Assembly (NCBI GenBank): GCA_005400705.1
Contig: GCA_005400705.1_4079.1
Direction: 5' to 3' (one strand)
Length of the DNA stretch: 64,000 bases
DNA from: Escherichia coli
Lineage (GTDB): Bacteria; Pseudomonadota; Gammaproteobacteria; Enterobacterales; Enterobacteriaceae
Below are positions 17,234 through 19,305 of this stretch, in pieces. The notes below the pieces were generated by a model. The model made no database searches, was not told the DNA's origin, and was given only the letters and a program-made list of their open reading frames with translations. The translations under genes and the position numbers were made by a program. Each line of letters starts with the position of its first letter. Position 1 is the first letter of the stretch.

Positions 17234-17408
17234 GACATTTGATGAGTGGTATCAAATGCATTACAATATAAATGCAGGTGATGTATACTTCTTTAAGTTG
17301 GAGTTGTTTTTATTGTTAAATGATCCCGAATCGTACTATAACAATATCATTTATTGTGATGATTTTAGTACATATTTTAGTATTGCAGTTATGGATATAA
17401 AAAGATGA
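17223..17408 (+). CDS. hypothetical protein
   Basis: 61 aa ORF overlapping neighbours. Confidence 0.4.
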   Translation: MQPKTFDEWYQMHYNINAGDVYFFKLELFLLLNDPESYYNNIIYCDDFSTYFSIAVMDIKR

Positions 17409-17467
17409 CACATGAAGAATGGTTGGTACAAACTGAACACTTGGTTATAGCAAGTATGAAATTTTGA
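17405..17467 (+). pseudogene. truncated MTHEEW-family ORF (20 codons)
   Basis: Starts ATGACACATGAAGAATGG like four longer paralogs but hits a stop after 20 codons. Confidence 0.35.
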
Positions 17468-17768
17468 AATGAACAGTTGATGCACTTGGTAAGTAATAAA
17501 GCGTATTACGATGCATTCTTTGGGAAAATGCTACAATTGAGGTTCATGTGTATTATGCTATTACATTTGGTGATTAATTTATGAAATATGAACATTTAAA
17601 ATACTATGCTGATAGAATAAATTATTATCCCTTTTATATAAGATTAGATGCATTAATATCAAAAAAAGTTGTATATAAACGTTCTCAAGCTGAACTAACC
17701 AATATAGCATTCATTCTTGCAGTACTGTCTAAAATGGGATAATATTAAATTAAGATGGATATTAAGAG

Positions 17769-17945
17769 ATGACACATGAAGAATGGTTAGATGAACTAAA
17801 ATTCAAACATAATCCTTTTGGTTTTGGTATACGCCAAGGTCATTATGATGTGTTAAAAGATAAACAACTTTTCAAATCATTTGTACTTGATGCGGATAGC
17901 AACCACTGGTTCATCTATGAGCTTGCAATTAGAGACAAAAAATAG
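17769..17945 (+). CDS. small protein, MTHEEW family
   Basis: MTHEEWLDELKFKHNPFGFGIRQGHYDVLKD...NHWFIYELAIRDKK; paralog of 18287-18469. Confidence 0.5.
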   Translation: MTHEEWLDELKFKHNPFGFGIRQGHYDVLKDKQLFKSFVLDADSNHWFIYELAIRDKK

Positions 17946-17972
17946 TAAGATAAATATAATAGTTATTACGGT

Positions 17973-18044
17973 GCAGGTAAAGTGTTGATGGCGGCATACA
18001 GTACTTCCGATTCTGGGGGTGGGGTTCAAATCCCCATACCTGCT
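17973..18044 (+). tRNA. tRNA-Gly (anticodon UCC), one U-U mismatch in anticodon stem
   Basis: Acceptor GCAGGTA / TACCTGC, canonical T arm TGGGG-TTCAAAT-CCCCA, anticodon loop CTTCCGA; no encoded CCA. Confidence 0.55.
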
Positions 18045-18069
18045 CAAAATATAATAAAGGTGATTTAAT

Positions 18070-18285
18070 ATGAAAGTCATTATCAATCCAGCAGGAAACT
18101 TTTTTGGTGAGGTTTTCGGTGCAGACTGTGTTGTGCAAAATTTTCCACGAATTGAAATTGACGGAATTGATGTTCAACAATATGGAAACCTGTACTATGT
18201 AGTTGATGAGACTGGTTCTATTGTTCATGACAGTGCTTTCTTTACAAAAGAAGAGATGAAGCACTTAATTGTACTGGATACATAA
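18070..18285 (+). CDS. hypothetical protein
   Basis: SD AAAGGTGA. Confidence 0.5.
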   Translation: MKVIINPAGNFFGEVFGADCVVQNFPRIEIDGIDVQQYGNLYYVVDETGSIVHDSAFFTKEEMKHLIVLDT

Positions 18286-18286
18286 A

Positions 18287-18469
18287 ATGACACACGAAGA
18301 ATGGATGTCCAAACAGTATAAAGAACATGACTGCTTTGGGAATGGTATTCGTCAGGTACATTATGATATTCTCAAAGATATAAATTTATTCATAAAATAT
18401 GTTTTGGATGAAAATAAACATTGGTTTATATATGAGATTGCATATAGAAACTCAAATAAACAAAAATAA
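18287..18469 (+). CDS. small protein, MTHEEW family
   Basis: Internal ATG of track ORF 18269-18469; MTHEEWMSKQ...HWFIYEIAYR. Confidence 0.5.
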   Translation: MTHEEWMSKQYKEHDCFGNGIRQVHYDILKDINLFIKYVLDENKHWFIYEIAYRNSNKQK

Positions 18470-18483
18470 ATAAGGAATATATT

Positions 18484-18702
18484 ATGGAAACAACGTTATT
18501 TGAAGTTATTCAAGCATTAAAAACTGGTGATGACATTCAAGTATTGCTACATGGTTATCGTTTAAAAGGCACTGTGGTTTTAGTTAATGACACAACGTTA
18601 GTTATTGCCGAAACAAATCCATATGATAGTAATCAAGTTGCTAATATCCATATTGATATTAAAAGCATTATTGGTGTAGGCGTAAATAAAAATCAAGAAT
18701 AA
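18484..18702 (+). CDS. hypothetical protein
   Basis: SD AAGGAA. Confidence 0.5.
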   Translation: METTLFEVIQALKTGDDIQVLLHGYRLKGTVVLVNDTTLVIAETNPYDSNQVANIHIDIKSIIGVGVNKNQE

Positions 18703-18782
18703 CAAATGTTTTTGAAAAAACCAGAAAATGAATGATTTTTTTTTGGGACAACTCAAAAATATATGATATAATAATTAGTACA

Positions 18783-18872
18783 GGTGAAGTGGCAGAGTGG
18801 TTTAATGCAACGGTCTTGAAAACCGTCGAGGGTGAAAGTCCTCCGTGAGTTCAAATCTCACCTTCACCGCCA
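18783..18872 (+). tRNA. tRNA-Ser (anticodon UGA), class II with long variable arm
   Basis: Acceptor GGTGAAG / CTTCACC, anticodon stem-loop ACGGT-CTTGAAA-ACCGT, T arm GTGAG-TTCAAAT-CTCAC, encoded CCA. Confidence 0.8.
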
Positions 18873-18876
18873 ATAT

Positions 18877-18958
18877 CCGGGCGTATCTCAACGGTCTTCT
18901 AAACCGTCGTTAATCGAGTAACTGGAGTATGCAGGTTCGAGTCCTGTCGCCTGGGCCA
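18877..18958 (+). tRNA. atypical tRNA-like element (anticodon loop CTTCTAA = UCU, Arg-type); D arm not evident
   Basis: Acceptor CCGGGCG / CGCCTGG, T arm GCAGG-TTCGAGT-CCTGT, encoded CCA, perfect anticodon stem-loop only 7 nt after the acceptor, 23 nt between anticodon stem and T stem. Confidence 0.3.
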
Positions 18959-18979
18959 ATTTTAATTAAAGGTTAAACC

Positions 18980-19144
18980 ATGACGCATAAAGAATGGATG
19001 AATGACATTAATTTTAGATATGCAGGTTTCGGTAACTGGAGAAAGTATCATTGGGAAATCATGTCAGACCCAGCAGAATACGATAAACTTATAAACCATG
19101 AAGCGTATCCGTGGTTCTTTATTGAAATAATGGTACGAACATGA
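18980..19144 (+). CDS. small protein, MTHEEW family
   Basis: MTHKEWMNDINFRYAGFGNW...; below ORF-track cutoff. Confidence 0.4.
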   Translation: MTHKEWMNDINFRYAGFGNWRKYHWEIMSDPAEYDKLINHEAYPWFFIEIMVRT

Positions 19145-19305
19145 CACATGAAGAGTGGATGAAACGCCAAAAATTAAAGTGGAATCCTTATTATCTCTCG
19201 TTAGAGCCGAGAATGTGGGATGTGATACGTGTTAAATGTATGTACAAATCATTTCTTTGTGATATAATGGATGTTGAAGTTCTGATGCATATTGTGTACA
19301 GATGA
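19141..19305 (+). CDS. small protein, MTHEEW family
   Basis: MTHEEWMKRQKLKWNPYY...; ATGA overlap with previous paralog. Confidence 0.4.
   Translation: MTHEEWMKRQKLKWNPYYLSLEPRMWDVIRVKCMYKSFLCDIMDVEVLMHIVYR

Follow-up and report, generated by a model that had tools for sequence, protein, structure and literature searches.

Five very short open reading frames (ORFs) that begin with the same codons lie on the plus strand, among tRNA genes, in a 64-kb stretch of DNA from Escherichia coli assembly GCA_005400705.1 (contig GCA_005400705.1_4079.1); this whole stretch is called the window below. They fall within 1.9 kb, and their positions and starts (four MTHEEW, one MTHKEW) are those given by an earlier, sequence-only reading of the same DNA. 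We consider, with moderate confidence, that these ORFs belong to a multigene family that is restricted to one lineage of jumbo coliphages and undergoes birth-and-death turnover. In a megablast search, positions 17200-19400 matched Escherichia phage 121Q (genus Asteriusvirus, 348 kb) with 96% identity over 100% coverage, and about 45 other jumbo phages of Escherichia and Salmonella with 84-92% identity over 59-85% coverage. The counterpart region of 121Q is annotated as the hypothetical proteins gp114-gp127 with tRNA genes in between. The G+C content of the window is 33%.

The small genes and their protein superfamily

The first gene of the group, which we call c0 (17223-17408, 61 aa), starts with MQPKTFDEW and is a divergent paralogue of the MTHEEW genes; its stop overlaps the start of copy 1 as ATGA at 17405-17408. 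Copy 1 (17405-17577) is a pseudogene whose initial MTHEEW ORF has 20 codons (17405-17467), and it is accompanied by an ORF of 53 aa starting with MKYEHLKYY (17581-17742). Copy 2 (17769-17945, 58 aa, MTHEEW) is followed by tRNA-Gly(tcc) (17973-18045) and by an unrelated ORF of 71 aa (18070-18285, phrog_25670), the TAA stop of which leaves a gap of 1 nt to copy 3 (18287-18469, 60 aa, MTHEEW). Beyond tRNA-Ser(tga) (18783-18872) and an atypical tRNA-like gene (18877-18955) come copy 4 (18980-19144, 54 aa, MTHKEW) and copy 5 (19141-19305, 54 aa, MTHEEW), joined by an ATGA overlap at 19141-19144 that the sequence-only reading had already described and that we confirm. All these features are on the plus strand.

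The 18-mer ATGACACATGAAGAATGG, with up to three mismatches allowed, has five plus-strand sites between 17405 and 19158, and these are the five ORF starts. The only other match in the 64 kb is on the minus strand and carries three mismatches; 0.14 matches were expected from shuffled sequences, and none of 100 shuffles reached six. Copies 2 and 3 also share the C-terminal block HWFIYE[LI]A.R; the leading asparagine that had been assigned to both is present in copy 2 (NHW) and replaced in copy 3 (KHW).

Copies 2-5 match phrog_10970, a profile hidden Markov model (HMM) of 56 positions and unknown function, over positions 1-55 or 1-56 with E-values of 2e-30, 5e-27, 1e-26 and 6e-22, respectively; copy 1 read through its stop reaches an E-value of only 0.048. 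The c0 protein corresponds to phrog_31562 (E 3e-44, positions 1-61 of 61) and joins the same superfamily in an iterative profile search covering all ORFs of the window and of the loci fetched from its relatives (E 2e-17 and 7e-15). The 53-aa ORF was borderline in this search (jackhmmer E 0.009). It has clear counterparts inside the gene arrays of two metagenomic relatives described below (L009, 1834-2001; L011, 7020-7184 and 7559-7720) and in JNE01, and it probably belongs to the superfamily as a divergent member. No further member was found by the iterative search in the rest of the 64 kb or on the minus strand. With six intact members, of which one is borderline, and a pseudogene, the window thus holds more of the family than the five ORFs first noticed. 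The PHROG collection keeps phrog_10970 and phrog_31562 apart, with unknown function for each; on profile similarity, we would unite them in one superfamily, probably together with the 53-aa ORF. The copies gave no significant profile or structural match in Pfam-A, NCBIfam, PADLOC or solved folds.

Selection on the encoded proteins was estimated by the Nei-Gojobori method from comparisons of the copies with their orthologues in 121Q, slurp01, E9.1, PBECO4, Ecwhy_1, G17, JNE01 and Turkey5. The ratio of non-synonymous to synonymous substitution rates (dN/dS) was about 0.1-0.45 in every orthologue pair with dS > 0.3. By gene, it was 0.09-0.19 for c0, 0.16-0.24 for copy 2 at dS > 0.5, 0.44 for copy 3 (against slurp01), 0.06-0.58 for copy 4 and 0.18-0.29 for copy 5. 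These values show that purifying selection acts on the encoded proteins.

The family is confined to this group of phages in all searches made. A profile search of 5.8 billion proteins returned 25 clusters, an exhaustive HMM search of 1.84 billion representatives returned 22, and tblastn against 50,697 records of cultured phages matched 37, all of them jumbo phages of Escherichia or Salmonella and nearly all with genomes of 310-386 kb. The superfamily profile added nothing beyond this lineage, and a repetitive match of 541 aa (P0040) looks spurious. The idea of a genuine paralogous small-protein family with homologues in related phages is thus borne out, and its copy number turns over.

Copy number rises to 10 in JNE01 and higher still in uncultured, more distant relatives known from metagenomic Logan assemblies (L009-L012 and L015; 30-33% G+C), in which 18-24 superfamily genes follow one another head-to-tail. 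There are 24 contiguous copies in L009 (81-4378) and 18 in L011 (6001-9417). These genes encode proteins of 50-64 aa with almost zero intergenic space, and the arrays sit directly upstream of genes for tRNA-Leu, Gly, Ser, Met and Asn and of a NUMOD4-HNH gene. When the 5.3-kb array of L011 was used as a DNA query, cultured phages were matched by its HNH gene only. Judging from these unbroken arrays, the interleaving with tRNA genes in Asteriusvirus appears to be secondary.

Turnover of copies among related phages

The history of copy 1 can be read from its orthologues. JNE01 and Turkey5 carry an intact gene of 57 aa, MTHKEWLVQTKHSVIPGMKFWNEQLMHFVSNKVYYDAFFGKHATIEVHVYYAIAFSD, with a TGG (Trp) codon where copy 1 has the stop TGA (17465-17467), after which the frame stays open to 17584. 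Phage 121Q shares the TGG to TGA change without a second lesion that is present in the window, the loss of one A in the run 17525-17528, which shifts the downstream frame. The intact gene in JNE01 and Turkey5 and the additional lesion in the window therefore identify copy 1 as a pseudogene that is still decaying. The truncation to 20 codons that had been seen in the sequence is real, but it marks a decaying gene, not a short variant of the protein. In 121Q, gp115 (63 nt) and gp116 (99 nt) have separate annotations as hypothetical proteins but are two pieces of the same pseudogene (locus L001, 4206-4379) and should be read as fragments of one pseudogene. Read-through or recoding of the TGA was considered and rejected, given the TGG of the intact orthologue and the frameshift that the window has and 121Q lacks; an ARAGORN scan found no tRNA with anticodon TCA in the window.

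Copy 1 and the 53-aa ORF are bracketed by a direct repeat of 34 nt on the plus strand (17391-17424 and 17755-17788, 94% identical). Its left member consists of the last 14 nt of c0 and the first 20 nt of the MTHEEW gene, and its right member contains a remnant of the 3' end of c0 (MDIKR and the stop codon) just before copy 2. The left member probably serves as a joint for recombination: along the window, homology to slurp01, PBECO4, E9.1, G17 and Ecwhy_1 is lost at 17424-17426, about 20 nt past the start of copy 1, and is found again from 17755-17769. The 342-364 bp in between, with copy 1 and the 53-aa ORF, are found only in 121Q, JNE01 and Turkey5, as is the 346-bp stretch 17423-17768. Relative to Ecwhy_1 the difference is a clean insertion or deletion of 342 bp with its junction duplicated on the flanks; relative to slurp01 the segment replaces a different paralogue, which begins MTHEEWMAMMKKRYDQFGNGF.

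Other parts of the locus have also been rearranged. After the pair of tRNA genes, 121Q, G17, Ecwhy_1, JNE01 and Turkey5 have three ATGA-linked genes of 165 bp, of which two are present in the window, slurp01, PBECO4 and E9.1. The variable third gene, D', corresponds to exactly one unit of 161 nt, from ATGA to ATGA. Its distribution is mosaic in phages that are nearly identical in other respects, and it cuts across relatedness, the window being nearest to 121Q and G17 nearest to slurp01. Ecwhy_1 carries two paralogues in exchanged order around an inserted ORF of 167 aa. Copy 5 is an intragenic mosaic, with a 5' half like that of 121Q and a 3' half like that of JNE01.

In all, four independent rearrangements are bounded at the shared 5' block, and we infer that, together with the pseudogene, they reflect birth-and-death evolution by recombination at this site. 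Every copy shares the same 5' end of about 20-35 nt, and the block would therefore serve as a patch of homology for recombination. Unequal or homologous recombination at the block would add, delete, swap and recombine copies between closely related phages.

Expression, predicted fold and possible functions

The small genes are closely packed. Of 60 distinct starts, 27 form an ATGA overlap with the preceding ORF and a further 18 follow its stop at a distance of 1-5 nt, so that 45 of the 60 are within 5 nt of an upstream stop. The stop-start junctions of the window are ATGA at 17405 and 19141 and TAA-n-ATG at 18283-18289. A convincing Shine-Dalgarno element is present only in copy 4, the first gene after the tRNA block (AAAGG, about 7 nt upstream). 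This spacing suggests translational coupling along the array: ribosomes would pass from gene to gene by termination and reinitiation.

Between 14 and 24 kb, 12 promoter-like sites match the consensus at 10 or more of 12 positions, all on the plus strand. Near-consensus sites lie at 14181, 14274, 19317, 19796, 21460 and 22626, and four of the 12 precede the genes for tRNA-Gly, tRNA-Ser(tga), tRNA-Ser(gct) and tRNA-Ser(act) by 10-13 nt. The site before tRNA-Gly (17932-17960, 10/12, 12 nt upstream of the tRNA) has its -35 element within the last codons of copy 2, and the one before tRNA-Ser(tga) (18743-18772, 10 nt upstream) has 10/12 matches and a TG extension. The sigma-70-like promoter at 19317-19344, close to the consensus (TTGACT, a spacer of 16 nt, TATAAT), opens the next transcription unit and is kept in 121Q, slurp01 and G17. 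On the plus strand, the interval from 14.7 to 23 kb contains no terminator-like site. Most likely, therefore, the host RNA polymerase transcribes the small genes together with the phage tRNA genes from same-strand sigma-70-like promoters, which would make them early genes. The promoter-like sequence TTGACTAAATA[GA]TTCAGTAC has two more copies downstream, at 19725 and 19796 (region 19725-20187); the roughly 350 nt that follow them have no convincing ORF and no Rfam match, and may specify an uncharacterised RNA.

The proteins, of 50-64 residues, are predicted to form an all-alpha mini-domain of four helices. AlphaFold models reached a mean predicted local distance difference test score (pLDDT) of 73.9 for copy 2 (21 sequences) and 84.8 for copy 4 (37 sequences; helices 3-13, 20-29, 31-38 and 44-51). 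Aromatic residues make up 15-23% of the members, against a background of 12%. A shared charge signature, as expected of a DNA mimic or a DNA binder, was rejected: isoelectric points range from 4.3 to 9.7, and aromatic richness is the only common feature. At the N-terminus, 84 distinct superfamily members have Thr2 in 73, His3 in 47, Glu, Gln or Asp at position 5 in 73 and Trp6 in 72; His3 is near-invariant within the phrog_10970 subfamily. Both models place the start of helix 1 at residue 3, so Thr2 directly precedes the first helical residue. We infer a helix capping box (S/T-x-x-E) made up of Thr2 and Glu5, with Trp6 as an anchor that holds the helix in the core.

On this model, the turnover of copies would diversify a repertoire of early, host-directed mini-effectors, engaged in the takeover of the host or binding components of its defences; we propose this function with low confidence. 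Several points weigh against parts of this picture. The models behind the capping box have predicted template modelling scores (pTM) of 0.55-0.58, and the near-invariant His3 of the phrog_10970 subfamily is left unexplained by it. Recombination at the 5' block is deduced from breakpoints. The assignment to the early phase comes solely from matches to the promoter consensus, and the total of promoter-like sites is not enriched (53 found, 56 expected from shuffles). We found no transcriptome for the genus, and the family is not mentioned in the papers on 121Q, PBECO4, Sharanji and phAPEC6 or on the comparative genomics of jumbo phages.

A different view of the conserved start is that the near-invariant MT(H)xEW is a recognition or address tag on a diversified library of four-helix mini-effectors, used for packaging or injection as in T4, for N-terminal processing or for metal binding by a free-amine X-X-His motif, and we regard it as unlikely. 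In its most specific form, which we find somewhat less likely again, the N-terminus would act like the capsid targeting sequence of phage T4, and the small proteins would be loaded into the prohead and injected as anti-defence proteins. The T4 internal proteins also carry a short conserved N-terminus on divergent small proteins (MKT[YF][QK]EF in T4, MTH[EK]EW here): IPII and IPIII start with MKTYQEFIAE and IPI with MKTFKEF, which resemble MTHEEW in the order of a threonine, an aromatic residue or histidine, a polar residue, a glutamate and an aromatic residue. Their genes adjoin a tRNA cluster and the homing endonuclease gene segB, as the present genes lie beside a tRNA cluster and a homing endonuclease gene, and both loci are plastic among related phages. 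The internal proteins of T-even phages form a diverse, defence-countering set of which only the targeting sequence is common to all (PMC3012670), heads of the 121Q type contain an inner body (PMC7247149), and in copy 2 the motif is followed by L-D-E, as would be expected of a cleavage site of the T4 type (L/I-x-E).

However, this sequence occurs in copy 2 only: copies 3-5 read WMSK, WMND and WMKR, residue 8 is Asp or Glu in nine of the 84 members, and no cleavage site is conserved. Unlike the T4 internal proteins, the present proteins have homologous bodies that align over all 55 residues as one helical domain. Their genes lie behind sigma-70-like promoters among tRNA genes, an early-looking context, and not in the late block of head genes. 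Among the 62 proteins listed for the phAPEC6 virion there is none of 6-7.5 kDa and none from this region (PMC7247149, Table 1); the argument is weak, because proteins of this size readily escape detection. The profile searches of 5.8 billion proteins and 1.84 billion representatives and the search of PDB sequences returned no T4-like internal protein, and so showed no homology to IPI, IPII or IPIII outside the leader. The T4 set is the nearest functional analogy; the likeness is suggestive, and membership in the set fails.

As improbable, in our estimate, is a role in tRNA biology, in which the proteins would act as inhibitors or decoys of host anticodon nucleases or assist the maturation of phage tRNAs. 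Such a role would agree with the linkage to the tRNA cluster, conserved from Asteriusvirus to the distant metagenomic relatives, and with the view that the tRNA arrays of jumbo phages counter tRNA-cleaving defences (PMC7824862). The linkage may, however, be mere synteny of the early region, and the proteins show neither signatures of RNA binding or nuclease inhibition nor a consistent charge that their isoelectric points would reveal.

The manner of evolution that we favour, birth and death of tandem copies by recombination, has parallels outside these phages. Multigene families of large DNA viruses, such as MGF110 and MGF360 of African swine fever virus (ASFV) and the gene accordions of poxviruses, evolve by tandem duplication and unequal recombination. 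They resemble the present family in that tandem paralogues keep a similar N-terminal region, close strains differ in copy number, and pseudogenes and recombinant alleles occur; they differ in that the present proteins belong to a phage, have about 55 residues, are encoded by genes that overlap as ATGA and are probably coupled in translation, and carry no signal peptide or known functional motif. Another parallel is Bacillus phage G, with an expansion of a zinc ribbon to about 35 copies (PMC7824862). This is likewise a lineage-specific multiplication of a tiny domain in a jumbo-phage genome; here, the domain is all-alpha and lacks a Cys/His metal site, the phage group is another one, and the array is strictly contiguous beside tRNA genes.

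The repeated start and the neighbouring genes

The sequence-only reading had left open that the repeated 5' sequence is a duplicated translation-initiation module. On such a reading, an initiation element or a downstream box that acts at the nucleotide level would have been copied in front of unrelated small ORFs. We give this little credence. The five copies agree in the 18-mer exactly or almost exactly, and the 30 distinct copies in Asteriusvirus use ACA or ACG at Thr2 and never ACT, although ACT makes up 47% of Thr codons. The ATGA overlaps, for their part, impose one real nucleotide constraint, because the second codon must begin with A. However, the bodies of the ORFs are mutually homologous, no common element precedes them except the one pair of 34-nt repeats, and Shine-Dalgarno elements are not conserved. 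The His and Glu codons of the block follow the codon bias (genome-wide, CAT for 73% of His and GAA for 79% of Glu). In the distant arrays Thr2 is encoded by ACA in 14 cases, ACT in 11 and ACC in five, and residues 3-4 vary while the pattern T-x-x-E-W, conserved in the 84 members, stays. Amino-acid conservation, an AT-rich codon bias and common ancestry suffice to account for the likeness of the 5' ends, and the initiation module is therefore unsupported.

Also put forward on the sequence was that small genes, tRNA genes and HNH endonuclease genes travel together as mobile cassettes, which we consider highly improbable. The family does adjoin a tRNA cluster in every lineage examined, and an HNH gene is nearby in the window and in L011. 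The order of the members and their position relative to the tRNA genes are nonetheless syntenic across the relatives examined, the distant relatives have a contiguous array with the tRNA genes after it, and units of gene and tRNA lack terminal repeats and flanking target duplications. The sole HNH-associated insertion or deletion is a segment of 763 bp (20697-21459), 1.4 kb downstream of the last copy, with a NUMOD4 and HNH_3 gene at 20913-21437. It is bracketed by tRNA-Ser paralogues and not by family genes, and it is missing in six relatives (121Q, slurp01, G17, E9.1, PBECO4 and Ecwhy_1), all of which retain the flanking family members. The HNH element is mobile on its own and varies independently of the family.

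The two tRNA-Ser genes that flank the HNH segment, tRNA-Ser(gct) (20603-20692) and tRNA-Ser(act) (21499-21590), each have their own TATAAT box. Both flanks of the segment match one single stretch of 121Q, and at this site Ecwhy_1 has tRNA-Ser(gct) and 121Q, slurp01 and G17 have tRNA-Ser(act). The region 20603-21590 looks like a product of homing or co-conversion that joined two tRNA-Ser alleles. The anticodon ACT of tRNA-Ser(act), with A34, is unusual. A tRNA-specific adenosine deaminase has been reported in this phage group (the Sharanji paper, PMC11895373), and editing of A34 to inosine would widen the decoding of this tRNA towards AGA.

The tRNA-like gene at 18877-18955 scores 32.6 bits with the Rfam tRNA model and is not called by ARAGORN. 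The D arm is missing, the anticodon loop reads CUUCUAA, the variable arm is long and CCA is encoded; at 19 of 21 positions the anticodon arm agrees with that of the adjacent tRNA-Ser(tga). An identical sequence is annotated as tRNA-Leu(taa) in 121Q, and in slurp01 and G17 the same slot is taken by an unrelated, canonical tRNA-Arg(tct). An Rfam scan of 15-26 kb returned tRNAs only. Between copy 3 and tRNA-Ser(tga), an ORF of 72 aa (18484-18702), conserved in relatives including JNE01, has weak matches to DUF7513 and DUF6897, which are small beta-rich domains (E about 0.02-0.03). The array of small genes is flanked on both sides by a second family of paralogues, of about 120-185 aa, with the motif EEE.F[QM].ST near the C-terminus (9470-10027, 15683-16075, 16284-16832, 19376-19729 and 25769-26224; looser matches at 16829-17233 and 20188-20577).

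Least probable of all is that the ORFs are spurious and their repeats non-coding spacers or processing signals of the tRNA transcript: the ORFs are very short and one copy is broken, but dN/dS is far below 1 in all orthologue groups, reading frame and length are kept across paralogues at 20-40% identity, the four-helix predictions are confident, and the single broken copy visibly gathers further lesions.

As a kind of feature, the family described here is ordinary: it is a lineage-specific group of paralogues, already clustered in PHROG and annotated as hypothetical, and the genes of the window are near-identical to those of 121Q. We found no publication on the proteins of phrog_10970 or phrog_31562. 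What is new is the unification of the superfamily, the arrays of 18-24 copies in uncultured relatives, the diagnosis of the pseudogene, an account of the conserved start at the protein level and the evidence that recombination takes place in the common 5' block. Several orphan families of PHROG merge with unannotated ORFs into one superfamily of helical proteins of about 55 residues, and 24 tandem copies are an unusually dense expansion for so small a domain. The locus also offers a clear case from nature of birth-and-death evolution in a phage, with a unit-precise insertion or deletion, an intragenic mosaic, a swap of gene order and a dated pseudogene, the breakpoints lying at a short coding block that the copies share. 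If the proteins are host-directed, the arrays would be a ready panel of small binders to screen against the defence systems of E. coli. Should the conserved start indeed be a tag, the arrays of up to 24 copies would amount to a rapidly reshuffled anti-defence arsenal in which each copy has its own host target, possibly among tRNA-directed defence nucleases, and would offer a natural library of new inhibitor specificities.

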